24,221 nt of DNA, taken from NCBI GenBank assembly GCA_041557055.1, contig JBFFHG010000001.1, positions 1 through 24,221 on the forward strand. Reading direction: 5' to 3'. The stretch is from Desulfosarcinaceae bacterium. Its GTDB lineage: Bacteria > Desulfobacterota > Desulfobacteria > Desulfobacterales > Desulfosarcinaceae. Below the pieces are notes generated by a model. The model saw only the letters and a list, made by a program, of their open reading frames with translations. It had not been told where the DNA came from and did not search any database. The position numbers were made by a program, and so were the translations under genes. Positions 3,568 through 16,911 of this stretch are shown here, piece by piece (positions within the stretch are counted from its first letter, which is position 1; the number at the start of each line of letters is the position of its first letter).

Positions 3568-6009
3568 ATGGCCGAATCGGATAAAGATGACCTCATCAGT
3601 ATTATTGAGGAGGATATAGGAGATACTGAAATTCCCACGTCGTTGCCTTTGTTGCCGGTGCGTGATGTGGTGATTTTTACAGATATGCTGTTGCCGTTAT
3701 TTGTGGGAAGGGAAAAGTCCATAAAGGCTGTGGAGACGGCTGTTGCAAAAGACCGCTTTCTCTTTGTCGCCACCCAGAAAGACCCGGCCATTGAGAATCC
3801 AAAACCTGAAGATATTTTCGCGGTAGGTACCATCAGCCGAATTTTGCGTATGCTGAAACTGCCCGACGGACGTGTCAAAGCCTTGGTTCAGGGGTTTGCC
3901 AAAGCCAGAATTAAAAAGTATCTCCACAAACGGTCCCACTACCGCGTGGCGGTCGATATTCTGGATGAGCCCGAAATGCATATACCTGGGCTGGAGATTG
4001 AGGCCCTGATGCGCAATGTGCGGGAATATTCCGAAAAAATACTGGCGTTGCGCGGTGAGTTCAGCGGCGACGTGGGCAGTATTCTGGAAAGCATTGAAGA
4101 GCCAGGAAAACTGGCCGATCTGGTCGCTTCCAACCTGCGCCTCAAGATCGACGAGGCCCAGGAGGTTATCGAATTGATCGATCCGGTGGGGCGCCTTCGC
4201 AAGGTGCATGATCTGCTCTCCCGCGAGGTGGAGCTTTCCGCCATGCAGGCCAAAATCCAATCGGATGTCAAGGATGAGATTTCCAAAAGCCAGCGGGACT
4301 ATTTTTTGCGGGAGCAGGTTCGCGCCATTCACAAGGAGTTGGGCGAACTGGATGACCGGGGCCAGGAGGTCGAAGAGTATAAAAAACGAATCAAACGCGC
4401 CCGGATGCCCAAGGCAGCCGATGACGAGGCCAAAAAGCAGCTGCGCCGGCTGGAGCAGATGCATCCTGATTCGGCTGAATCCTCAGTGGTGCGTACCTAT
4501 TTGGATTGGTTGACCGAAGTGCCCTGGAACAAAAACACCAAAGACTTGCTGGATATTGAAAAAGCCCAGGCGGTGCTCAACCACGATCATTTCGGACTGG
4601 AAAAAATCAAGGACCGGATACTGGAATACCTCAGCGTGCGCAAGCTGAACCCTGATCTGAAGGGGTCCATTTTATGTTTCGTGGGACCGCCGGGGGTGGG
4701 GAAAACCTCATTGGGCCAGGCCATTGCCAAAGCCTTGCGGCGCAAGTTCGTTCGAATTTCTCTGGGCGGCATTCGCGACGAAGCCGAAATCCGGGGGCAT
4801 CGGCGGACATACATCGGCGCCATGCCAGGACGAATTATCCAGGGGTTGAAAACATGCAACACCAACAATCCTGTCTTTATGATGGATGAGATCGACAAGC
4901 TGGGGGCGGATTTTCGCGGTGATCCCTCCTCCGCATTGCTGGAGGCCCTTGATCCCGAGCAAAATGATGCTTTTTCCGACCATTATCTGAATTTGCCCTT
5001 TGATCTGTCAAAGGTCATGTTCATTCTGACCGCCAACCTCACGGATACCATTCCATCGGCCCTGCTGGACCGTATGGAGGTGATCAATCTGTCGGGCTAC
5101 ACAGAAGATGAAAAGGTCGCCATTGCGGAAAAACATTTGATTCCGCGGCAGTTGAAAGAGAACGGGCTTAAATCCAAACAGTTGGTAATCAGCCAGCAGG
5201 CGCTGCGGCAGATGATCAATGAATACACATCGGAAGCCGGGTTGAGAAATTTGGAGCGTGAGATCGCCTCCCTGTGCCGGAAGGTGGCGCGCAAAATCGC
5301 CGAAGGCAAAAAAGGTCCATTTAATATCAGCCGACAGAATATGCAGAAATATTTGGGGGTCCCAAAGTTCTACCCCGAAATGGACCAGGAACAGAGCCAG
5401 GTGGGGTTATCTACGGGACTTGCCTGGACCCAGGCCGGCGGCGAAGTCCTATATGTGGAAGCCAGTTTGATTCGGGGCAAAGGGGAGTTGATCATTACCG
5501 GTCAGATTGGAGAGGTGATGCAGGAATCGGCCCGGGCTGCCCTGAGTTATGCCAGAGCCTATCTGGACACGGTGGGCGTCAAGCCACAGATTTTTGAGAA
5601 TCTGGACATCCACATTCATGTGCCTGCCGGCGCCATCCCCAAAGACGGACCTTCGGCCGGTATCGCCATGGCCACGGCGTTGATATCGGTCGTGACCCAT
5701 CGACCCGTCAATAAGGATGTGGCCATGACCGGTGAAATCACCCTGCGGGGCCGGGTTCTGCCCATCGGCGGTTTGAAAGAAAAAGCCCTGGGAGCCCTGC
5801 GGGCCGGCATTAAAACCGTCATCATTCCGGGCAAGAACAAAAACGAGCTTGAGGAGATACCTGCGACCATCAAACGTAAGCTGAAGTTCGTGCCGCTCCA
5901 GAATATGGATGAAGTGTTGGATATCGCTTTGCTGGCGCCTGTAAATAATCCAACACGCAAAACCGGCCGCTCATCCAGGACCCGGGCAGCATCGAACAAG
6001 TCGTCCTGA
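3568..6009 (+). CDS. lon: ATP-dependent Lon protease (endopeptidase La)
   Basis: LON N-domain LPLLPVRD, Walker A GPPGVGKT, Walker B DEIDK, catalytic PKDGPSAG and GGLKEK; SD-like GGAG upstream. Confidence 0.98.
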   Translation: MAESDKDDLISIIEEDIGDTEIPTSLPLLPVRDVVIFTDMLLPLFVGREKSIKAVETAVAKDRFLFVATQKDPAIENPKPEDIFAVGTISRILRMLKLPDGRVKALVQGFAKARIKKYLHKRSHYRVAVDILDEPEMHIPGLEIEALMRNVREYSEKILALRGEFSGDVGSILESIEEPGKLADLVASNLRLKIDEAQEVIELIDPVGRLRKVHDLLSREVELSAMQAKIQSDVKDEISKSQRDYFLREQVRAIHKELGELDDRGQEVEEYKKRIKRARMPKAADDEAKKQLRRLEQMHPDSAESSVVRTYLDWLTEVPWNKNTKDLLDIEKAQAVLNHDHFGLEKIKDRILEYLSVRKLNPDLKGSILCFVGPPGVGKTSLGQAIAKALRRKFVRISLGGIRDEAEIRGHRRTYIGAMPGRIIQGLKTCNTNNPVFMMDEIDKLGADFRGDPSSALLEALDPEQNDAFSDHYLNLPFDLSKVMFILTANLTDTIPSALLDRMEVINLSGYTEDEKVAIAEKHLIPRQLKENGLKSKQLVISQQALRQMINEYTSEAGLRNLEREIASLCRKVARKIAEGKKGPFNISRQNMQKYLGVPKFYPEMDQEQSQVGLSTGLAWTQAGGEVLYVEASLIRGKGELIITGQIGEVMQESARAALSYARAYLDTVGVKPQIFENLDIHIHVPAGAIPKDGPSAGIAMATALISVVTHRPVNKDVAMTGEITLRGRVLPIGGLKEKALGALRAGIKTVIIPGKNKNELEEIPATIKRKLKFVPLQNMDEVLDIALLAPVNNPTRKTGRSSRTRAASNKSS

Positions 6010-6011
6010 TC

Positions 6012-6707
6012 ATGGCAAAGGCGATGCTGGCCGTTGATACCGCCACCGAAAGTTGTGGCGTTTGCATTGTTGCCGATGGCCGGGTTCAGACCGAATTGTG
6101 CCTGAACCATGGCGAAACCCATGCCCGGCATATTCTCCATGCCGTTGATGCCGTGCTTTCGCTGAGCCGAATGTCATTGGCGGACATTGATGCCTTTGCG
6201 GTGACCAAAGGTCCGGGGAGTTTTACAGGTTTGCGGATCGGTATCAGCACGGTGAAGGGGTTGGCCTTTGCCGCGGGCAAGCCTGTGGTGGGCGTTTCAA
6301 GTCTGGAGATCCTCGCCCGCCAGGCCGGATACGGTACACAACTGGTCTGCCCCATGATGGATGCCCGGCGAAAGGAGCTTTATTGGCGCATTTACCGCCG
6401 GGAGGGTGATGACTTGGTTTCCCAAACCAATGAACAGGTGGGGCCTTTGGACCGACTGACGGGTCAAATCGACGGTTCGTGTTTGTTTATCGGCAACGCA
6501 ACGGCGCTTTATGCCACCCAAGTGGCCCGACGGTTGAAGCATAATGCCCAATGGGCGCCCGCAAACGATAACGACATCCGCCCCGCGGTGCTGGCCCGAT
6601 TGGCCTGGGATCTGTTTCAGCAGGGGCGATGTGTTGATGCGGAAACTTTTGTTCCGGTCTACCTGAGAAAATCCGATGCCGAACTCAATCGCAAACACCT
6701 GAGTTGA
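6012..6707 (+). CDS. tsaB: tRNA t6A37 threonylcarbamoyltransferase complex subunit TsaB
   Basis: LAVDTAT, HARHIL, GPGSFTGLRIG, MDARRKELY, PVYLRKSDAE; begins 2 bp after the lon stop. Confidence 0.96.
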   Translation: MAKAMLAVDTATESCGVCIVADGRVQTELCLNHGETHARHILHAVDAVLSLSRMSLADIDAFAVTKGPGSFTGLRIGISTVKGLAFAAGKPVVGVSSLEILARQAGYGTQLVCPMMDARRKELYWRIYRREGDDLVSQTNEQVGPLDRLTGQIDGSCLFIGNATALYATQVARRLKHNAQWAPANDNDIRPAVLARLAWDLFQQGRCVDAETFVPVYLRKSDAELNRKHLS

Positions 6708-7020
6708 ATGGTTGATCAGCTCAGTCTGCGACTGTGGGCCATGTTATCTTTGTCCATACCGGCCGTGAATAATGGGCTTTTTATTGACACCGCATTTTAA
6801 AATAGATATTGCTAACACATTTTTAGGATAGTTGCTTTTGTTGCGGCGCAGCCCATCAGAGTCGTTTTCCCGATTGGCGCGATCCATTGGGGGCCCTTAT
6901 CATCACTTTCAGGTTTTATCGGCTCGCCTTTCGGCAGACTGTTTGGTGGCTCCGGGAGAACAATCAGAGGTCAAGTTTAGAGTCATAAATACCGATTAAA
7001 AAAAATCCAGAATAAAATCG

Positions 7021-7051
7021 ATGGCCAAGGTCACAGGGTTGGCTGTTTTTT
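7021..7051 (+). terminator. Candidate intrinsic terminator or attenuator in the greA leader
   Basis: Stem ATGGCCAA (7021-7028) / TTGGCTGT (7039-7046), 8 bp with two G-U pairs and a 10-nt loop, running into T6 (7046-7051); 62 nt upstream of greA. The stem is weak. Confidence 0.35.
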
Positions 7052-7113
7052 GATGGCGGCCCGGATCTGAATGGGTCGAACACAACCACATTTACTAAAA
7101 AGGAGAGAGCGGT

Positions 7114-7581
7114 TTGGAAAGAATTCCCATTACCCGCCCCGGCTATGAGAATTTGCATAAGGAGTTGCGGCATCTCAAAACGGTGGAGCGCCCCAACGTC
7201 ATCAAGGCCATTGAAGAGGCGCGCGCCCATGGCGATTTGTCTGAGAATGCCGAGTATGAAGCAGCCAAAGAGCGACAAGCGTTTGTTGAAGCGCGGGTGA
7301 ACGAGTTGAGCTTTAAACTGAACAATGCGGATGTTATCGATCCCGACAACTTGCCCAAGGATCGAGCTGTCTTTGCAAGTCGCGTCCTGCTTGAAAATGT
7401 GGATACAGGTGAGGATGTGGAGTATCAACTGGTCGGTCCGGAAGAGTCGGATATCAACCAGGGGCGCATTTCCATTGCTTCGCCTTTAGGCAAAGCCATT
7501 GTGGGGCGCAGACCCGGTGACGAGATCGTATTACAGGCGCCGGGAGGCAAACGGGTTTACGAATTGGTGGAAATTCTTTGA
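7114..7581 (+). CDS. greA: Transcription elongation factor GreA
   Basis: EARAHGDLSENAEYEAAKERQ, IS.ASPLGKA, APGG; TTG start with strong SD AAGGAG. Confidence 0.97.
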   Translation: MERIPITRPGYENLHKELRHLKTVERPNVIKAIEEARAHGDLSENAEYEAAKERQAFVEARVNELSFKLNNADVIDPDNLPKDRAVFASRVLLENVDTGEDVEYQLVGPEESDINQGRISIASPLGKAIVGRRPGDEIVLQAPGGKRVYELVEIL

Positions 7582-7598
7582 TTTGTTGGAGGTTTATC

Positions 7599-7802
7599 AT
7601 GGCACGAATTACCCTTGAAGATTGTTTGAAACGCGTGGAAAACCGGTTTATACTGGTTCATATGGCCGCGGCGCGGGTGCGCCAGATTCGGGAAGGATCT
7701 GAATATCTGGTCAGTTCACCCAAAAATGAAGATATCGTTGTCGCCCTGCGTGAGGTGGCTGCCGGTAAAATCATTGAAAAAAGACAACTTGAAGAGGCTT
7801 AA
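7599..7802 (+). CDS. rpoZ: RNA polymerase omega subunit
   Basis: MARITLEDCLKRVENRFILVHMAAARVRQ...ALREVAAG; SD GGAGG before ATG 7599 (the ORF-track start at 7578 is too early). Confidence 0.95.
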   Translation: MARITLEDCLKRVENRFILVHMAAARVRQIREGSEYLVSSPKNEDIVVALREVAAGKIIEKRQLEEA

Positions 7803-7828
7803 AGGGCAAGAACCGAAGCTGTGCAGCA

Positions 7829-8560
7829 TTGACGCCTTACAGTCGCACATACACTTTGCTCAACCGCAATTTGGGAAAAGCCCTGAACCGATATCGCATG
7901 ATCCATGACGGCGACAGGATCGCCGTGGGCGTTTCAGGGGGAAAGGACAGTTGGGCGCTCTTATGGCTGCTGGCCGACTTGCAGCGTCGCGCTCCGGTTC
8001 AATTCAAGCTTTTTCCCATATACATCGATCCCGGTTTTGAAGGGGGACCGGCCGATGTGATTGCCGAGCAGGGACATGCTCTGGGTTTTGATGTGCGTAT
8101 CGAGCACACTGAGCATGGATTGGTGGCACACAGCGACAAGAACAGGAAGAATCCCTGCTTTTTATGTTCCCGGTTGCGACGCAAGAATTTGTTCGAGATT
8201 GCCCGCGAGTTGGAATGCAGCAAACTGGCCCTGGCCCATAACAAAGACGACATCATCGAAACCCTGTTTCTCAATATGTGCTATGCTGGCGAGATCAGTA
8301 CCATGGTGCCCTATCAGCCCTTTTTTAATGGTCGCTTGACAGTGATTCGACCGCTGGCCTATGCAGATGAAGAGGCCCTTGAACGCTTTGCCCAACAGAT
8401 GCAGTGGCCGATAAAAGAGAACCCCTGTCCCAGCGCCGGGCGCTCCAAAAGGGCTGAAATAAAAGCACTGTTGCGGAAACTCTATGCCGCCAACAGAAAA
8501 ATTAAAGGGAACATTTTCAGGTCCTTGCGGCATGTCAAGCTGGAGTACCTGCTTAAATAG
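7829..8560 (+). CDS. ttcA: tRNA 2-thiocytidine(32) synthetase TtcA-family PP-loop ATPase
   Basis: PP-loop SGGKDS, CFLCSRLRR, AHNKDD, IRPL, NPCP; TTG start. Confidence 0.85.
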   Translation: MTPYSRTYTLLNRNLGKALNRYRMIHDGDRIAVGVSGGKDSWALLWLLADLQRRAPVQFKLFPIYIDPGFEGGPADVIAEQGHALGFDVRIEHTEHGLVAHSDKNRKNPCFLCSRLRRKNLFEIARELECSKLALAHNKDDIIETLFLNMCYAGEISTMVPYQPFFNGRLTVIRPLAYADEEALERFAQQMQWPIKENPCPSAGRSKRAEIKALLRKLYAANRKIKGNIFRSLRHVKLEYLLK

Positions 8561-8601
8561 CCCCTATGGCCGCCCCTGAAGGACCTGGAAGAGCGAATGC
8601 C

Positions 8602-9384
8602 ATGAAAGATGTGCAGAATCAACGCGACAACCGGAATCTCCCCATCGATAAGGTGGGGATTAAAAATTTACGCTATCCCGTCACCGTTCGGGACCGCAGG
8701 GAAGGCCGCCAGCACACGGTTGCCACGGTCAATATGTATGTGGATCTGCCCCATGAATATAAAGGCACCCACATGAGCCGTTTTGTGGAGTTGCTTCATC
8801 TGCTCAAAACCGAAGTGTCACTGCAGAAGTTCTCTGAACTCCTTGATCAGATGAAAAACCATCTCAATGCCGCTTCCGCCCACATCGAGATCACCTTTCC
8901 TTACTTTATTGAAAAAAAAGCCCCTATCAGCGCCGCCCCCGGCTTAATGGATTACACCTGCCGCATCATGGGGGCGAGCAATTCCCATAACCAGATCGAT
9001 CTGGTGTCCGAGGTCAATGTGCCGATCACCTCGGTGTGCCCCTGCTCCAAGGAGATCAGTGATCACGGCGCCCACAATCAGCGTGGTGAAGTGAAGCTGC
9101 AAACCCGTTTTAACCGGTTTATCTGGCTTGAAGACATGATTGAGCTGGTGGAGTCGTGTGCTTCCTGTGATGTCTATTCCGTGCTTAAACGGGTGGATGA
9201 AAAACACGTTACCGAGCAAAGCTATGACAACCCCAAATTTGTGGAAGATATCGTGCGAGATGTGGCCGCCTGTTTGATGCAGGATGAAAATATCACTTGG
9301 TTTTCAGTGAGCGCTGAAAATTTTGAATCCATTCACAACCATAGCGCCTACGCCCATATTATCAGCGGGGACAAGCCCATCTAA
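8602..9384 (+). CDS. folE2: GTP cyclohydrolase IB (FolE2)
   Basis: MKDVQ, IDKVGIK, KGTHMSRF, TSVCPCSKEIS, GAHNQR, NPKFVED, ESIHNHSAYA. Start 8602 preferred over 8566. Confidence 0.96.
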   Translation: MKDVQNQRDNRNLPIDKVGIKNLRYPVTVRDRREGRQHTVATVNMYVDLPHEYKGTHMSRFVELLHLLKTEVSLQKFSELLDQMKNHLNAASAHIEITFPYFIEKKAPISAAPGLMDYTCRIMGASNSHNQIDLVSEVNVPITSVCPCSKEISDHGAHNQRGEVKLQTRFNRFIWLEDMIELVESCASCDVYSVLKRVDEKHVTEQSYDNPKFVEDIVRDVAACLMQDENITWFSVSAENFESIHNHSAYAHIISGDKPI

Positions 9385-9865
9385 AAATATCAACTGTCAA
9401 AGTCCAATGGATTCTGACATTTTTTATCTTTGAATGCAGCGCAACGTTCAACAACCCCAAAAAACATATACGATTGCCCTGGCTCACCCCACCTCCTCTG
9501 TTGACATACCATGCGGATTTTGAAATAAATTATTTATATCGGCACACGTTCCGGATTTTAATCAATTCAATCTCATCTTAGTCCGTTTGCTGTAGCCAAA
9601 TTGTTCCGTTGTCCGTCTTGGCCGCAGTGACGGTAGTAGTAAGTGCAGGCCCAGTGCCCGCGATATTTTTCTATTGTGTGTGTGGTAGAAGTGGTTTCAA
9701 AGCCTTCCACCGGCTTTTTGATCAAAGCGGGGCAAAGCGCACCGCCGCAGGAATGCATCCGGCATTTTGAGGATCAGACCGCTTGCCCTGATGCTGGTAT
9801 GGGGCTTGACGTCAGGTTTTGAAACCATTGCCAAGGCCTTCATGACGCGTCATAGAGGAGGCCCC

Positions 9866-12130
9866 ATGTTCCATCGTTTACCTGTGGTGTGGTTTTGGAT
9901 TTGTATCGGCACTGGGCTGTTGGGCGCCATTGGCAGTCGCATGCCCTTGCTATCGAACGCGGAGGAGAGCCTTGGCCTGCACTTGCTGTACATGTTGCGT
10001 GGACCCGAGCAAACGAAGGCCGACGTTGTTATCGTGGCCATTGATCGGCAATCGGCCAAAGCTTTAAATCTTCCGGCGGCACCCCATAAATGGCCGAGGA
10101 CGCTCCATGCCCGGCTATTGGAACGGCTGACCGCCCGGCAAGCGGCCGTTATTGTTTTTGACCTGATTTTTCATGAACCACAGGAGACGGTCAACGACAA
10201 AACCTTTGCGACGGCCATGCACAATGCCGGCAATGTCATTTTAACCCAAACCATCGACAGGCAGGCAATGCCCCTCTCCGATCGGAAGGGCGTCCCGGCA
10301 ACCCGGTTGAATATTGAAAGAATGGTATCGGCCATTCCCGTTCTGGCAGACGCGGCCATCGGCCAGGCGCCATTCCCTTTGCCCAAGGTGCCCATCAAAT
10401 TGAGTCAATACTGGTGTTTCCGCTCCGGGTCCGGTGATGTGCCCACCCTGCCCGTGGCGGCCTTTCATGCCTTTGATGGAGAAGCTTTTAACGGTTTCAT
10501 TCAATTGCTCAGAAAAGCCGATCCTGCCCTTATGGCTTCTTTTCCCGACCCCAGGGATGGAAAATACTCCCTGCGCCATGTTATCAGGACAATCCGGCCG
10601 CTGCATGCCTTGTTTGAAAAAGATGCCACTCTGGCGCCAAGGATGATTGAAGCGTTGGACCGTCATCCGCCCCAACAAATGGCCGGGCACACCATCAGAC
10701 GGATTAGATCGCTCATCAGCCTCTATGGGCATGGCAACAGCCGCTATCTCAATCTTTACGGCCCGTCTGGAACCATCCCAACCATATCCTACCATCGTTT
10801 CGTGACCGAAACCCATACAAGTGAAAACAGTGGCAAGCTGCCGCCCCTGAAGGGCAAGGCGGTCTTTGTGGGGCAGACCGAAAGTGCCTGGTTCAAGGCC
10901 AATGACGGCTTTTACACGGCCTTCACCCAAAAGTCGGGCGTGGACATCAGCGGGGTGGAAATCGCAGCCACCGCCTTTGCCAATTTACTGGAGGACAAAG
11001 CCGTCTATCCCTTGGAACCGAATATCTCTTTTGCATTTTTTCTGGGTTGGGGTATCCTCTCGGCTTTTATCGCTCTTCATTTTTCCACCAGCGCTTGCGC
11101 AGCCGGTCTTTTGCTTCTTAACGGCATTTATATCGCTGTGGCTCATATTCAATTCAAATCCGGCGGTATTTGGTTTCCCCTGGTCGTTCCCATCCTGATT
11201 CAAACGCCGGCGGCATTCATCGTCGGTTTGGCATGGAAATACCGCAACGCCAATACCGAGCGTCAAAACATCCGCAAAGCCTTTGGCCATTACCTGCCCG
11301 ACGAGGTGGTGGATCGGCTGTCCGCCAACATAAAGGAGCTGCGCGCCGGTGGGCAGGTCCTTTATAGCATTTGTCTTTTCACCGATGCCCAGAATTACAC
11401 GACGCTTTCAGAAACCATGGACCCGGAAAGTCTGACCCAATTGATGAATACTTATTATGAGGCTGTTTTCAAGCCCGTCAAGGCCAACGGCGGACTCGTC
11501 CTGCAGGTGATCGGAGATTCGGTTCTGGCCCTTTGGACCGCCCCGGAAGTCAAAAGCGAACTAAAAAAAGCGGCCTGCCGGGCTGCTATCGAGATAACCG
11601 CTTCGGTAAATCGTTTCAATGCACAAGCTGTTCCTTATCTGCTGCCCACCCGAATCGGCATTCACGCCGGTGAAATCCTGTTGGGCAACATCGGCGCCAT
11701 GGACCACTTTGAATACCGGCCGGTGGGCGATATCGTCAACACCGCTTCACGCCTGGAGGGATTGAACAAGTTTTTAGGCACTCGCATGCTGGCTTCCCAG
11801 GAAGCTTTTGCCCCGGACAACGGATTTTCAGCACGGCCGGTGGGACGGTTTGTGTTCAAGGGCAAGTCTCACCCGGTCCAGGTGCATGAACTGCTGCCTC
11901 AAGATAAGCTCTCGCCGGAGCTGCAGACCGCGGTGGCCCGCATCTTTGCATCCGGTTTGAATGCTTTCGAACACCAACGCTGGGATCAGGCCGATGATTT
12001 TTTCAACCGGGTACTGCAAATTGATGACACCGACGGACCGTCACGGTTCTATCTCAGGCTTTGCCGTGAATATCGGCAGCGGCCGCCGGGCAGCGAATGG
12101 GACGGGACCGTGCATCTAAAACAGAAGTAG
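9866..12130 (+). CDS. Membrane-bound class III nucleotide cyclase: TM - CHASE2 - 3 TM - cyclase - TPR-like tail
   Basis: CHASE2 motifs VVIVAID, WPRTLHARLL, VFDLIF, GKAVFVG, GVEI.A; three TM helices follow; cyclase FTD, IGD, RIGIHAG, GDIVNTASRLE, KGK; tail DGPS..Y...WDG. ATG 9866 has SD GGAGG (the ORF track starts at 9767). Confidence 0.92.
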   Translation: MFHRLPVVWFWICIGTGLLGAIGSRMPLLSNAEESLGLHLLYMLRGPEQTKADVVIVAIDRQSAKALNLPAAPHKWPRTLHARLLERLTARQAAVIVFDLIFHEPQETVNDKTFATAMHNAGNVILTQTIDRQAMPLSDRKGVPATRLNIERMVSAIPVLADAAIGQAPFPLPKVPIKLSQYWCFRSGSGDVPTLPVAAFHAFDGEAFNGFIQLLRKADPALMASFPDPRDGKYSLRHVIRTIRPLHALFEKDATLAPRMIEALDRHPPQQMAGHTIRRIRSLISLYGHGNSRYLNLYGPSGTIPTISYHRFVTETHTSENSGKLPPLKGKAVFVGQTESAWFKANDGFYTAFTQKSGVDISGVEIAATAFANLLEDKAVYPLEPNISFAFFLGWGILSAFIALHFSTSACAAGLLLLNGIYIAVAHIQFKSGGIWFPLVVPILIQTPAAFIVGLAWKYRNANTERQNIRKAFGHYLPDEVVDRLSANIKELRAGGQVLYSICLFTDAQNYTTLSETMDPESLTQLMNTYYEAVFKPVKANGGLVLQVIGDSVLALWTAPEVKSELKKAACRAAIEITASVNRFNAQAVPYLLPTRIGIHAGEILLGNIGAMDHFEYRPVGDIVNTASRLEGLNKFLGTRMLASQEAFAPDNGFSARPVGRFVFKGKSHPVQVHELLPQDKLSPELQTAVARIFASGLNAFEHQRWDQADDFFNRVLQIDDTDGPSRFYLRLCREYRQRPPGSEWDGTVHLKQK

Positions 12131-12144
12131 AAAGGTGAGGGGGA

Positions 12145-15100
12145 ATGATGCTGGGACGGGCGATTATCGGGATCACATTGTGCATTTTGGGCGCCGGAAT
12201 CCATGGGGCGCCGCCGGCGGCCCAGGCTGACGGATCGGATACATCCTGGGTCAGCAGGATTGTCTCCATTCAGGGAAACGTACGGGTCAGGTCGCAGGGG
12301 GAATTCGACTGGCGGCCGGCGAACCTGGACGAGGCCCTCTTTGCCGGCGATCAGATCCGCGTGGAGGCCAACAGCCGCGCCGGCATCGTATTGTGCAATG
12401 ATGCCGTTCTGCGCCTGGATCAAAACACCACGTTGGTTTTCACCGAGATCGAGCAGGAGACAACCTTTATTATTAAACTCCTCAGGGGCGCCGCCAATTT
12501 TTTCAGCCGCAGGCCGCGCAGCCTGAAAATCGTCACCCCTTTTGTCAACGGTGTGGTTGAAGGCACGGAATTTTACGTTCAGGTCGATGACGGCCAGACC
12601 CGTATCGACCTGTTTGAGGGGCGCATCATGGCCCGCAACGCTTTTGGAACGGTTTATCTGGCAAAAGGGCAGGGCGCCGTGGCATCGGCCGGCAGCGCCC
12701 CCCAAAGCTGGCTCCTCGTTCAACCGCGGGACAGCGTGCAATGGGCCCTCTATTATCCGCCCGTACCGGCCCCGGGGCCCGATGATGGGCCGGCTGAAAT
12801 CAGAGAATCCATCGCATTGTTCAATCAAGGCAAAATCCTCGCGGCCATCGACACTCTGGCGCAAATCAAAGGGGCTGCGCAGGATTCCCGGTTTTTTGCC
12901 TATCGGGCCGGCTTACTGGTCCACATGGGCCGTGTATCCGAAGGCCGGTCCGATATCCAACACGCCTTGGCAATGGACCCCTCAAATGGTGACGCCCTGG
13001 CCTTAGAGGCGGTTGTCGCAGTGGTTCAAAATCAAAGGCAGGCGGCCCTGGCGGCCGCTCAAAAGGCGGTGCGGTCCGCCCCTGGCTCGGCGGCCGCCCC
13101 AATTGCCCTCTCATATGTCCATCAGGCCGGCTTCAATCTTGCCCAAGCACTTCAGGCCGCTCAAGCTGCGGTGGTCAACGCGCCTGACAACGGTACGGCT
13201 TGGGCCCGTCTGGCTGAGTTGCGGCTCTCCACAGGTGCGCTGGCTCAGGGCATTCAAGCCGCCCAAACGGCTGTCAGGCTGAACCCTCACGTTGCCCACG
13301 GGCACACCATCCTGGGGTTCGCCTATTTGACCCAAATCAAGACCGAAAAGGCCCGTCATGCTTTTAATCGAGCCATTGCCCTGGATTCCGCAGCCCCCCT
13401 GCCGCGCTTGGGCCTCGGACTGGCCGAAATCCGCGACGGCGATTTGGAACAGGGCCGGTCGCAGATGGAAATCGCCGTGGGCCTGGACCCCGGCAATGCC
13501 CTGATCCGCAGTTATCTGGCCAAAGCCTACTTTGATGAAAAACGCGGCCCGCTGGATGAGCAGCAGCTCGAAATCGCCAAAACCCTGGACCCCAACGACC
13601 CCACCCCCTGGTTCTACGACGCCATCCGCAAGCAGACCCTCAACCGGCCGGTGGAGGCCCTTCAGGATATTCAAAAATCCATGGAACTCAACGACAACCG
13701 CGGCGTATACCGCTCCCGCTTGCTGCTGGACCAGGATCTGGCGGCCCGCAGCGCCAGCCTTGGAAGAATTTATAACGATTTGGATTTCCAACACCTTGCG
13801 CTGATGCAGGGGTATGGATCGCTCAATGCGGATTCCACCAATTACTCGGCCCACAGGTTGTTGGCGGACACCTATGCGGCCAAGCCCCGCCATGAGATAG
13901 CAAGGGTGAGTGAATTGCTTCAATCACAACTTTTTCAACCGTTGAATTTGACACCGGTCCAGGCCCATCTGGCCGAATCCGAAACCAATGTGATTGCAGG
14001 CGCAGGACCTGCCGACCTCTCTTTCAATGAGTTTAACCCCCTGTTCACGCGCAATCGGGCCGCGTTCCAGGCCGGCGGCATCAGAGGAAACAACAACACA
14101 TGGGGCCATGAGATCACCGGGTCCGGACTGCTGGACCGTATCTCCGGCAGCATCGGTTCCTTTCATTATGAGACCGATGGTTTCCGCCAAAACAATGATG
14201 ATGCCGATGACCTTTTTAATCTTTTTGTGCAGGGCAGTCTGACGCCGGATACAAGCCTTCAGGCCGAATACAGATATTCGGAAAGTGAATCGGGGGATCT
14301 TTCGCAGAATTTTGACGGTTTGTTTTCCGCTGATCAGCGGGATGAAGAGGACATCATAAAAACAAGGATTGGCGCCCACCATCGTTTTTCGTCACAGTTT
14401 GAGATGGTTGCATCCTACATTCATTCTGATGTGGCTTTTGAAAGAAATAAGACTTTCTCCGGATACCCGGGAACGTTGAAAAGAGATATTGATGGCGATC
14501 TGTATGAGGTTCGAACCGATTATCGTCAAAATCGATTCGGACTCATCACAGGATTCAGTTACATGGATGGCGCAATTCACCAGGATTGGCGAATTTCCCC
14601 TTTCCCAGGCGTTGAGGTGCCCCTTCTGGACCATGAAAAGGCCGATTTTTTTAAAGATAATATCTATGCTTATTCAAATCTGACTTTTTTGGACAAGGCC
14701 GACCTGGTGATCGGGCTCGGTGCCGCCTCAATGAAAGCCGGGTCCCAGATAGAAAAGAAGCAGTTGAATCCCAAATTTGGATTAACCTTGCAGCCATTTT
14801 CAAACACCAGGCTGCGATTGGCCGCGTTTCGGGTTTTGAGCAGCACATATGTCTCCACACAAACGACCGAACCCACGCAGGTGGCCGGTTTCAGCCAGTT
14901 TTTTGACGATCTCGATGCCTCTGACGTCAGATCATACGGGATGGCGATCGATCAGAAATTTTCAAAGCGGTTATTCGGCGGCATTGAATACCTTCGAAGG
15001 GATCTTGATGCGCCCGAATTTAATATCGGTTCGGAAGTTGAGGCCGAGTATTCAAAATGGAAGGAATATACCGGGATTGCCTATCTCTACTGGGCGCCCA

Positions 15101-15498
15101 GTGACGCCATTGCATTGCGTGCCGAATATCAATATGAACAGTTCGACCGCAGAGACAATCCGATGACGTTTGATATCGTTGATATTGAGACCCACCGCGT
15201 TCCATTGAGCCTTAGATTCTTCAGCCCCTTGGGTTTCTCTTTCAGGGTTGCGACAACCTATTTTTACCAGCAAGGAGAATTTGCAGCGACCGATACAAGG
15301 GAGATCTATTCTGACAGCGACAGCTTTTGGATAATAGACACTGAAGTCGCATTTCGATTGCCAAAACAATGGGGCATTCTCTCTTTCGGCGTAAAAAATC
15401 TTTTAGATGAGCAATTCAACTACACAGACACTGATCCATCGAATCCTGCCGTGGTTCCCGGTGTTTTTGCATTTGGCAAAATTACGTTGTCTTACTAG
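12145..15498 (+). CDS. Outer-membrane protein: signal peptide, FecR domain, TPR repeats, C-terminal TonB-receptor-like beta-barrel (NsrA-like architecture)
   Basis: Signal peptide ending AQA; FecR-like GDQIRV...RLDQNT...TP...VEGTEF; Ala-rich TPR helices (A..A...DP.N); alternating aromatic beta-strands from about aa 637; C-terminal beta-signal-like KITLSY. Confidence 0.85.
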   Translation: MMLGRAIIGITLCILGAGIHGAPPAAQADGSDTSWVSRIVSIQGNVRVRSQGEFDWRPANLDEALFAGDQIRVEANSRAGIVLCNDAVLRLDQNTTLVFTEIEQETTFIIKLLRGAANFFSRRPRSLKIVTPFVNGVVEGTEFYVQVDDGQTRIDLFEGRIMARNAFGTVYLAKGQGAVASAGSAPQSWLLVQPRDSVQWALYYPPVPAPGPDDGPAEIRESIALFNQGKILAAIDTLAQIKGAAQDSRFFAYRAGLLVHMGRVSEGRSDIQHALAMDPSNGDALALEAVVAVVQNQRQAALAAAQKAVRSAPGSAAAPIALSYVHQAGFNLAQALQAAQAAVVNAPDNGTAWARLAELRLSTGALAQGIQAAQTAVRLNPHVAHGHTILGFAYLTQIKTEKARHAFNRAIALDSAAPLPRLGLGLAEIRDGDLEQGRSQMEIAVGLDPGNALIRSYLAKAYFDEKRGPLDEQQLEIAKTLDPNDPTPWFYDAIRKQTLNRPVEALQDIQKSMELNDNRGVYRSRLLLDQDLAARSASLGRIYNDLDFQHLALMQGYGSLNADSTNYSAHRLLADTYAAKPRHEIARVSELLQSQLFQPLNLTPVQAHLAESETNVIAGAGPADLSFNEFNPLFTRNRAAFQAGGIRGNNNTWGHEITGSGLLDRISGSIGSFHYETDGFRQNNDDADDLFNLFVQGSLTPDTSLQAEYRYSESESGDLSQNFDGLFSADQRDEEDIIKTRIGAHHRFSSQFEMVASYIHSDVAFERNKTFSGYPGTLKRDIDGDLYEVRTDYRQNRFGLITGFSYMDGAIHQDWRISPFPGVEVPLLDHEKADFFKDNIYAYSNLTFLDKADLVIGLGAASMKAGSQIEKKQLNPKFGLTLQPFSNTRLRLAAFRVLSSTYVSTQTTEPTQVAGFSQFFDDLDASDVRSYGMAIDQKFSKRLFGGIEYLRRDLDAPEFNIGSEVEAEYSKWKEYTGIAYLYWAPSDAIALRAEYQYEQFDRRDNPMTFDIVDIETHRVPLSLRFFSPLGFSFRVATTYFYQQGEFAATDTREIYSDSDSFWIIDTEVAFRLPKQWGILSFGVKNLLDEQFNYTDTDPSNPAVVPGVFAFGKITLSY

Positions 15499-15514
15499 TT
15501 AAAGGAGGTTTTTT

Positions 15515-16171
15515 ATGAAGGGCTTACATTTAAAAAAGGGTGTTTGGAATGTTCTCTGGATCTTGCTTGGGGTGTTCGTGTTAGCCGGATGTGCTGGATG
15601 GTCATACAGACCAAGCCCTCCTTTCCCGGCGCCGGTGCCTGAAGATGCCAAGATTACAAAGAATTACAACTCAAAAGGCCAATTTTTCTTTGCGGATCAA
15701 AAGGGGGAGGTCGTTTCAACCAAACCGATGCCTTTTGGCGTGTTGCTGCAAAAATCGGATACAACGGAGCCGAACTGGATGAAGGTTCTCGGATGTTTTA
15801 CGGTTTATCGCATCCCCAATCACAGCAATGTGTGGCTGTGTGACAAAGATTCCCGATGCCTTGAAGGCACTCCCGCAGATAAAGCCAATGGCGCTGTTTT
15901 CAGCGTTAATTTTGACGGCAAAAAGCTGTTTATAGCCGACGCGTCGGGCCGCAGCATATCCGAAAAGGATCTAAAGAAGTTTGCTTCATTGGTTCGAGAT
16001 ACTGATCCTGACTCGCGGGCAGGCATAAGATTGTTGGATACCTTTACAATATACAAAATTAAAGGTTCTATCAGGATCGCGGATTGTTGCGAAAATATTT
16101 GTTTTTGCACATGTTTCGATGAAACAACCTGGCACCAGAGCGCGTGTGATAGACACGGTGCTTGCCCCTGA
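15515..16171 (+). CDS. Hypothetical lipoprotein with a two-fold internal repeat and Cys-rich C-terminus
   Basis: SD AAGGAGG; basic N-region, hydrophobic stretch, lipobox LAG-C26; Ala at +2; 10 further Cys, 7 of them in the last 28 aa. Confidence 0.85.
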   Translation: MKGLHLKKGVWNVLWILLGVFVLAGCAGWSYRPSPPFPAPVPEDAKITKNYNSKGQFFFADQKGEVVSTKPMPFGVLLQKSDTTEPNWMKVLGCFTVYRIPNHSNVWLCDKDSRCLEGTPADKANGAVFSVNFDGKKLFIADASGRSISEKDLKKFASLVRDTDPDSRAGIRLLDTFTIYKIKGSIRIADCCENICFCTCFDETTWHQSACDRHGACP

Positions 16172-16275
16172 TCAGGCCCGGGTTTATATTCCCGGTGTTC
16201 GGAAATCAGCATATAAACGTTTAGGGATCGCCAACGACCTGAAATAAGGCATTTTAAGAAAAATTTGGAGCATTC

Positions 16276-16911
16276 ATGTTAGAACGGGTTTCCCTTTTTT
16301 CGAATTTGAAAGCGCAGGAGATTGCCCAACTGGAGACCATCGGCCATGAGCGGTCGGTGGCCAAGAACAGTGTGGTGATCAATGAAGGCGACAATACGGA
16401 CTCGCTTTACGTTGTTGTAAAAGGCAAGGCCCATGCCCTGCGCAGTGATGAATCGGGCAGGCAGTTCATCGTCAATCGCTTCGGCCCCTATGATTATTTC
16501 GGTGAGATGAGTTTTTTCGATCGCAATGTGCGTTGTGCAACGGTGATTACAAAAGAGAAGTGCATCTTGATGGTTCTGCCGCGCAACGCCTTTTTCGATT
16601 TTGCCGCCAAACATCATGAGATCTACTGGAACGTCATTCGGGCCCTGTTGGAAAAACTCAGAAAGGCCACTGAGCAAATCGAGCAACTGGCCTTTCTGGA
16701 TGTTTATGGGCGCCTGACCCGTTTTCTGATCGAAAATCAGAATGAGGATGGGGTAATTGAGGAAAAGCTGACCCAACAGGAGCTGGCCGATTTGGTGGGG
16801 GCATCACGGGAAACGGTCAACCGTATTTTCAATGAACTGGTCGGCGGCGGTTACATAACCAAGGAAAAGGGGCGCATCAAGATTCATAAAAAGCTCCCCT
16901 ACAGCTTTTGA
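16276..16911 (+). CDS. CRP/FNR-family transcriptional regulator, CRP-like with cNMP pocket
   Basis: cNMP domain FGEMS...VRCATV, hinge LAFLDVYGRL (E. coli CRP LAFLDVTGRI), HTH TQQELADLVGASRETVNR; no FNR N-terminal Cys cluster. Confidence 0.93.
   Translation: MLERVSLFSNLKAQEIAQLETIGHERSVAKNSVVINEGDNTDSLYVVVKGKAHALRSDESGRQFIVNRFGPYDYFGEMSFFDRNVRCATVITKEKCILMVLPRNAFFDFAAKHHEIYWNVIRALLEKLRKATEQIEQLAFLDVYGRLTRFLIENQNEDGVIEEKLTQQELADLVGASRETVNRIFNELVGGGYITKEKGRIKIHKKLPYSF

Follow-up and report, generated by a model that had tools for sequence, protein, structure and literature searches.

Class III nucleotidyl cyclases read the base of their substrate at two sites, here called position 1 and position 2. 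In known guanylate cyclases, a Glu reads the exocyclic amine of guanine and a Cys reads its carbonyl at these same two positions (PMC2576301). The Synechocystis guanylate cyclase Cya2 carries Glu at position 1, and the exchange E488K alone turns it into an adenylate cyclase (PMC5995499). A further relevant system is known from S. meliloti, where NsrA is the outer-membrane component of a pathway leading from a plant signal to cyclic AMP (cAMP) (PMC13001267). Here we describe a receptor cyclase gene and its neighbours in a stretch of 24,221 nucleotides (the window) from a Desulfosarcinaceae bacterium (assembly GCA_041557055.1, contig JBFFHG010000001.1, positions 1 to 24,221 of the forward strand). 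The class III cyclase, the build of a CHASE2 receptor cyclase and the NsrA-type module are all of known kinds; what departs from both canonical codes is the base pocket, which is formed by Gln and Arg. Tentatively, and with not quite even confidence, we read this cyclase from its residues and by analogy as an enzyme that would prefer GTP and make cyclic GMP (cGMP), or that would at least have lost strict selectivity for ATP.

All positions refer to the whole stretch, P0002 denotes the 754-amino-acid reading of the gene and P0001 the 787-amino-acid reading. Counts out of 120 refer to the nearest homologues, which are 53-100% identical over the cyclase part and include as named members Desulfobacteraceae, Desulfosarcina ovata, and Desulfatitalea, and A1 is the family alignment. 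The gene has the following features:

9866 to 12130, plus strand: receptor cyclase gene P0002, 754 amino acids, with ATG at 9866 after a GGAGG ribosome-binding site; the gene call of the collection is 754 amino acids long and 100% identical
9983 to 11059, plus strand: CHASE2 sensor domain (Pfam PF05226, E 1.5e-29, 103.8 bits, residues 73-431 of P0001)
11375 to 11869, plus strand: class III nucleotidyl cyclase catalytic domain (Pfam PF00211, Guanylate_cyc, 50.8 bits versus a cut-off of 21.9, residues 537-701 of P0001)
11384 to 11386, plus strand: first metal Asp (F-T-D; D507 of P0002), codon GAT, invariant in 120/120 homologues and in A1
11504 to 11506, plus strand: Gln at position 1 (L-Q-V-I-G-D; Q547 of P0002), codon CAG, where adenylate cyclases have Lys and guanylate cyclases Glu
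11516 to 11518, plus strand: second metal Asp (I-G-D; D551 of P0002), codon GAT, invariant in 120/120 homologues and in A1
11717 to 11719, plus strand: Arg at position 2 (E-Y-R-P-V-G-D; R618 of P0002), codon CGG, where adenylate cyclases have Asp, Thr or Ser and guanylate cyclases Cys or Gly
11738 to 11752, plus strand: transition-state Asn...Arg (V-N-T-A-S-R; N625 and R629 of P0002), codons AAC at 11738-11740 and CGC at 11750-11752, invariant in 120/120 homologues and in A1
11864 to 11866, plus strand: phosphate Lys of the K-G-K motif (F-K-G-K-S; K667 of P0002), with G666 and K667 invariant in A1
11870 to 12127, plus strand: conserved C-terminal extension, about 85 amino acids beyond the cyclase core, with conserved columns F694, A709, D723, and W745 in A1

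An alternative in-frame TTG start at 9767 gives P0001, and the ATG at 9866 is the likelier start. As one hydrophobic segment precedes CHASE2 in the translation and three follow it, the sensor is predicted to lie in the periplasm and the cyclase domain in the cytoplasm. An N-terminal CHASE2 domain with flanking membrane segments, followed by an output domain, is the build of a CHASE2 receptor cyclase, with the topology as predicted. The output domain belongs to class III: PF00211 scores above its cut-off, and the protein has both metal Asps, the transition-state Asn and Arg, and the phosphate Lys. In the class III family K667 presumably acts as a triphosphate contact. A profile scan of the genome itself places the domain at 11375-11872, and it matches the PDB sequences of CyaB, Cya2, bPAC, and RhGC with a best E value of 4e-19; an NCBIfam search found no model matching the cyclase. 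The stretch is found in marine metagenome DNA sequencing runs, with no RNA run among those listed.

A first-pass annotation of this DNA had claimed that the catalytic core is intact and that both base-selecting residues are exchanged, Gln for Lys and Arg for Thr or Asp, and on both counts it proves right. Every codon that it named lies where it was reported, and the metal Asps and the transition-state Asn and Arg are kept in all 120 nearest homologues, compared with a mean column conservation of 72% (the share of the commonest residue per column). In a HMMER alignment to P. aeruginosa CyaB (3r5g, E 4e-19), the Gln faces the Lys of I-D-K-F-V-G-D and the Arg faces the Thr of D-Y-T-I-I-G-R, both motifs being free of gaps. 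In the alignment to Synechocystis Cya2 (2w01), the Gln faces Glu488, in a column that is Lys in the E488K fusion (6fht), and the Arg faces a Gly. The pocket is therefore neither that of canonical adenylate cyclases, with Lys at position 1 and Asp, Thr or Ser at position 2, nor that of canonical guanylate cyclases, with Glu at position 1 and Cys or Gly, or else Ser, Thr or Ala, at position 2, in line with the earlier statement that Gln/Arg fits neither the Lys plus Asp/Thr code for ATP nor the Glu plus Cys/Gly code for GTP.

Of the 120 nearest homologues, 112 carry Gln at position 1 and the other 8 carry Asp; at position 2 there is a single Leu, and the remaining 119 have Arg. Kept above the mean column conservation, the Gln/Arg pair is under selection among close homologues. 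Cultured Desulfosarcina variabilis Montpellier (locus L007) carries a Gln/Arg orthologue; in the orthologue P0075 of D. ovata, which is also cultured, position 2 was read directly and is Arg.

The pair belongs to a wider pattern. When 1.84 billion cluster representatives were searched exhaustively with HMMER, 885 clusters at 50% identity reached E<=1e-30, and the residues were tallied for the best 150; the homologues in total number 74,467. Lys at position 1 occurs in none of these 150 representatives and Glu in two. When the window is added as a further row, Arg is found at position 2 in 121 of the 151 aligned domains, and the pairs are Asp/Arg (93), Asn/Arg (18), Asn/Ala (8), Gln/Arg (7, window counted), Asp/Thr (7), Asp/Ala (4), and a few others. 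It is thus a trait of the family to be without Lys, to have Asp, Asn or Gln at position 1 and, usually, to have Arg at position 2, and its commonest pair, Asp/Arg, reverses the charges of the canonical Lys...Asp. Within this much larger Lys-less cyclase family, the Desulfobacteraceae have the Gln/Arg form; the family comprises hundreds of 50%-identity clusters in Thermodesulfobacteriota, Nitrospirota, sulfur-oxidising Gammaproteobacteria, Rokubacteria, and others. A tblastn search of plasmids recovered only canonical Lys-type CHASE2 cyclases. Our literature search found no description of Arg at position 2 or of the Lys-less family, and an earlier description is possible, one survey of bacterial guanylate cyclases (Ryu et al. 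2015) lying outside its coverage. The pocket also varies within the Lys-less family: the Asp/Arg members L011, L019, L020, L024, L025, and L060 have a Lys two residues past position 1 (S-D-V-K-G-D), where the CTP-specific cyclase EaPycC has Gln144.

Phylogenetic analysis of 119 cyclase domains with IQ-TREE places 20 Gln-first rows, including the window, in a core with 100% support. The Asp/Asn-first remainder (92 rows) makes up one side of a 96% branch and 24 of the 25 Gln-first rows lie on the other, so that for these sampled rows the Gln-first enzymes fall on one side of the deepest supported split in the Lys-less family. To this extent the Gln/Arg pair marks a clade, but one Gln/Arg row falls within the Asp/Asn group and indicates a second origin of the Gln-first state. 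The first-pass annotation had also proposed an alignment with Cya2 and CyaK to see whether the pair defines a clade; neither enzyme shares Gln/Arg, CyaK having Lys/Ser and Cya2 Glu/Gly. A long branch with 99-100% support divides the whole Lys-less family from three CHASE2 cyclases of the Lys type, namely S. meliloti CyaK and two from Azospirillum. With this outgroup the Gln-first lineages appear basal in the IQ-TREE analysis, but FastTree roots elsewhere.

The genome that contains the window also encodes two canonical cyclases, one with V-D-K-F-I-G-D and E-Y-T-V-I-G-D (Lys/Thr) and one with L-D-K-F-I-G-D and S-Y-S-V-I-G-D (Lys/Ser), and the Gln/Arg pocket is thus kept beside ordinary ones. A second non-canonical pocket, of another type, occurs on contig C173 of the same genome (L086), in which Arg occupies position 1 and Leu position 2; the motifs of this cyclase are V-E-R-I-L-G-D and F-D-L-S-G-D, and its open frame has 1143 amino acids in the genome scan and 776 within the fetched locus.

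The first-pass annotation had proposed cGMP or another non-cAMP nucleotide as a possible product, which makes chemical sense and agrees with Cya2. The cGMP reading draws on hydrogen-bond logic and on the precedent of Cya2. A carbonyl or carboxylate at position 1 could accept hydrogen bonds from guanine N1-H and N2-H, and an Arg at position 2 could donate to guanine O6/N7; adenine would offer the opposite pattern, with N1 as acceptor and N6 as donor. As an acceptor at position 1 together with an Arg donor at position 2 would suit guanine, in parallel with the Glu/Cys logic of known guanylate cyclases (PMC2576301), a preference for GTP seems the most likely reading. Adenine N1 is poorly matched by Asp, the residue that prevails at position 1 in the family.

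The gene neighbourhood was compared in a scan with one genome per species, which found 589 relatives and from which 80 loci were kept, from Thermodesulfobacteriota, Nitrospirota, sulfur-oxidising Gammaproteobacteria, Rokubacteria, Deferrimicrobiaceae, and Syntrophales. Three genes follow the cyclase in the window:

12145 to 15498, plus strand: NsrA-like partner, 1117 amino acids, with signal peptide, Pfam FecR and TPR matches and a C-terminal part resembling an outer-membrane barrel, 14 bp downstream of the cyclase
15515 to 16171: lipoprotein-like open reading frame P0270, 218 amino acids, with signal peptide, lipobox-like Cys and a Cys-rich C-terminal tail
16276 to 16911, plus strand: Crp-type cyclic-nucleotide-binding regulator P0269, 211 amino acids, with Pfam cNMP_binding and HTH_Crp_2

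A homologue of the NsrA-like protein (42-55% identity over about 1100 amino acids) lies directly downstream of the cyclase, on the same strand, in 56 of the 61 loci with room for it. The protein is collinear with NsrA, a FecR protein of 1197 amino acids whose gene immediately precedes cyaK in S. meliloti, with E values of 3e-17 for the FecR part and 1e-9 for the TPR part and weak similarity in the barrel part. A FecR-TPR-barrel homologue thus adjoins the cyclase as in the NsrA-type module, the coupling being known here as gene linkage. A complex prediction that paired the periplasmic CHASE2 domain (residues 26-385) and residues 30-210 of the NsrA-like protein, its FecR domain, scored 0.00 and has no weight either way. 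A Crp-like gene is present within about 1 kb of the cyclase in 13 of the 80 loci, in addition to the window, and the conserved core is therefore formed by the cyclase and the NsrA-like receptor, to which a Crp is frequently added. When all open reading frames of the 80 loci were clustered, nothing was recurrent besides these three, the other clusters being shadow frames. P0270 matched nothing in Pfam, NCBIfam or PADLOC, and none of the 80 loci contains a homologue of it. The upstream genes at 3568-9384 encode a Lon protease, a TsaB/TsaD-family protein, a PP-loop ATPase and the GTP cyclohydrolase FolE2, and none of these housekeeping genes is conserved beside the cyclase in the related loci. 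The G+C content changes from about 0.60 at 12200-13800, the FecR-TPR part, to about 0.45-0.49 at 14000-16600, a region that includes the barrel part and the lipoprotein gene and reaches into the beginning of crp. In Azospirillum sp. B510, positions 6611-11200 of plasmid pAB510c (L002) encode in a row a small hypothetical protein, a Lys/Thr CHASE2 cyclase and an outer-membrane protein of the ShlB/FhaC type, so CHASE2 cyclases have outer-membrane partners of more than one kind.

From this arrangement a signalling chain can be proposed. A signal would reach the periplasmic CHASE2 sensor, probably from the NsrA-like outer-membrane protein; the sensor would turn on a cytoplasmic cyclase homodimer, and the cyclic nucleotide formed would be read by the Crp-type regulator encoded two genes beyond, P0269 being the likely reader of the product. 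P0269 keeps the G-E...R phosphate-ribose motif and reads R-C-A instead of R-S-A in its phosphate-binding cassette. At CAP position 127 a hydrophobic residue weakens the discrimination between cAMP and cGMP. All 14 Crp neighbours of Lys-less cyclases (the window and L010, L028, L033, L049, L055, L058, L061, L066, L068, L070, L071, L072, and L076) have Ala-Thr or Leu-Thr at the place of Thr127-Ser128 in CAP and Thr140-Thr141 in Clr. It is CAP Thr127, or Clr Thr140, that contacts the adenine amine (PMC10127613), and the Ala or Leu found at this place in every one of the 14 would, judged from the residues, count in favour of GTP and cGMP. The neighbouring Crp is nevertheless not diagnostic of the cyclase product. 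A contrasting Crp of the cAMP type was sought in the same genome, an 82%-complete assembly, and only weak paralogues were found. A search for Crp boxes (TGTGA-N6-TCACA with <=2 mismatches) gave 7 matches where 7.6 are expected, so no Crp box is claimed for the operon. One may extend the proposal and suppose that the entire Lys-less, NsrA-coupled CHASE2 family consists of guanylate cyclases with an Asp/Asn/Gln plus Arg code for guanine and that the Ala/Leu-Thr Crp neighbours are cGMP receptors, which we regard as possible but more doubtful than the reading for the window enzyme itself.

Several points weigh against a preference for GTP. Gln can be donor or acceptor, so adenine is still possible as the base. 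Two M. tuberculosis enzymes, Rv0386 with Gln/Asn and Rv1900c with Asn/His, are active as adenylate cyclases and use GTP as a side activity only, and to our knowledge Arg at position 2 is part of no described GTP code. In the β1-α1 loop, which binds phosphate, the family has C-L-x-T-D-A-x-x-Y-T, with invariant Tyr (A1; 11375-11400 in the window), versus the canonical D-I/L-x-G-F-T, and the mode of nucleotide binding may therefore differ beyond the two base-reading positions. The closest solved relatives of P0269 are M. tuberculosis Crp, GlxR, Vfr, and CAP (E 1e-24 to 5e-20, versus 1e-13 for Clr), and P0269 has Thr at the position of CAP Ser128. Literature searches brought up no family member with a measured nucleotide product. 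Finally, the homologous NsrA-CyaK-Clr pathway of S. meliloti signals via cAMP (PMC13001267; PMC5498481).

Much of this would suit an enzyme that is still a strict adenylate cyclase, whose pocket, Gln/Arg here and Asp/Arg in other members, would hold adenine in a shifted position or with less specificity, within a cAMP module such as that of S. meliloti, the build of which it matches (PMC13001267). P0269 is nearest to cAMP-activated CRPs and retains both the phosphate-ribose motif and the Thr at the CAP Ser128 position. The non-canonical pairs of Rv0386 and Rv1900c show that adenylate cyclases can be active with them, and most tested bacterial class III cyclases are adenylate cyclases. In contrast, Lys is found in none of the 150 best representatives and Asp is dominant, and neither a carboxylate opposite adenine N1 nor an Arg opposite the N6 amine is favourable. 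CyaK, from which the cAMP analogy is drawn, is itself Lys/Ser, about 30% identical and situated across the branch with 99-100% support, and the window's own genome already has canonical Lys/Thr and Lys/Ser cyclases. On balance we consider a strict adenylate cyclase unlikely, although it is the strongest of the alternatives to a GTP-preferring or non-selective enzyme.

Clearly less probable is a pyrimidine or other unusual cyclic nucleotide (cyclic UMP, cyclic CMP or cyclic IMP) as product, or a broadly promiscuous enzyme. Uracil N3-H and O4 present the same donor/acceptor pattern as guanine N1-H and O6, the UTP-reading residues of BcPycC (Y50, D94, and R97) include an Asp and an Arg, and EaPycC uses R142 and Q144, which are located four and two residues before its second metal Asp, D146 (PMC11224242), placing R142 at the Lys position. 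However, the PADLOC models for PycC score 66 bits here versus 87-92 bits on canonical Lys-type cyclases, so the match to the window cyclase is generic. No Pycsar effector, i.e., a TIR or transmembrane protein with a cyclic-nucleotide-binding domain, is encoded nearby, the neighbours being the NsrA-like protein, the lipoprotein and Crp, and the sensor build with CHASE2 and NsrA points to envelope signalling rather than to phage defence. Also, the Crp has Thr at the CAP Ser128 position and not the uracil-reading Asn of PycTIR (PMC11224242). Membership in Pycsar was considered as a candidate assignment and rejected, on account of a PycC score lower than on the canonical control cyclases and of the absent adjacent effector. 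That the protein is a pseudo-enzyme, a receptor without cyclase activity that signals by protein contacts only, is very improbable, since in spite of a low Pfam score (50.8 bits, where the three other full-length matches of the genome score 75-98 bits) and the altered β1-α1 phosphate loop, the metal Asps and the Asn/Arg pair are invariant in the 120 homologues, the Lys of K-G-K is invariant in A1 across phyla, and a regulator binding cyclic nucleotides recurs beside the cyclase gene.

Few bacterial cGMP systems are known, namely Cya2, GcyA/CgrA from R. centenum, XC_0250/XC_0249 from Xanthomonas, and recent defence cyclases, and class III cyclases are routinely annotated as adenylate cyclases. 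The family described here is a large and phylogenetically broad group of receptor cyclases which lack the adenine-reading Lys and have a charge-reversed pair instead. If the product is cGMP, these cyclases would provide a new specificity code and a widespread second-messenger pathway tied to an outer-membrane receptor, and thousands of annotations would have to be corrected. If this applies to the whole family, envelope-to-cGMP signalling would be common in sediment and anaerobic bacteria, contrary to the long-held ‘dearth of bacterial guanylate cyclases’. If, on the other hand, the product is cAMP, the two-residue code would fail for an entire family.

Among described systems, the guanylyl cyclase of R. 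centenum is of another type, set apart here by its description only. M. tuberculosis Rv0386 and Rv1900c resemble the window enzyme as class III cyclases that remain active although an amide residue replaces the base-reading Lys, but they are soluble or otherwise regulated, have no Arg at position 2 and are unrelated to the module of CHASE2 and NsrA. PycC from Pycsar has a class III-like fold in which Asp, Arg, and Gln read the base near the Lys position (PMC11224242). P. aeruginosa CyaB (PDB 3R5G) is by sequence the closest solved structure (E 4e-19), with catalytic motifs that align without gaps, and differs in being a Lys/Thr adenylate cyclase with a sensor other than CHASE2. Cya2 from Synechocystis PCC 6803 (sll0646; 756 amino acids; PDB 2W01 and 6FHT) shares the whole build of CHASE2, transmembrane part, class III cyclase and C-terminal extension as well as a position 1 without Lys, and an alignment of the cyclase domains gives E 4e-15. 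In sequence, Cya2 comes no nearer to the window cyclase than CyaB does. Its pair is Glu/Gly, unlike that of the window cyclase, and its C-terminal extension, on which the activity of Cya2 depends, is dissimilar, giving no sequence match. We know of no NsrA-like partner for Cya2. Such a partner is provided by the S. meliloti system of NsrA (SMb20775), CyaK/CyaD1/CyaD2 and Clr, where a CHASE2 cyclase likewise adjoins a FecR-TPR-barrel protein of about 1100-1200 amino acids and a Crp-type regulator reads the nucleotide. This system differs from the window in its Lys/Ser cyclase CyaK, which is about 30% identical, in its reversed gene order with nsrA upstream, and in Clr, which has Thr-Thr where the Crp of the window has Ala-Thr.

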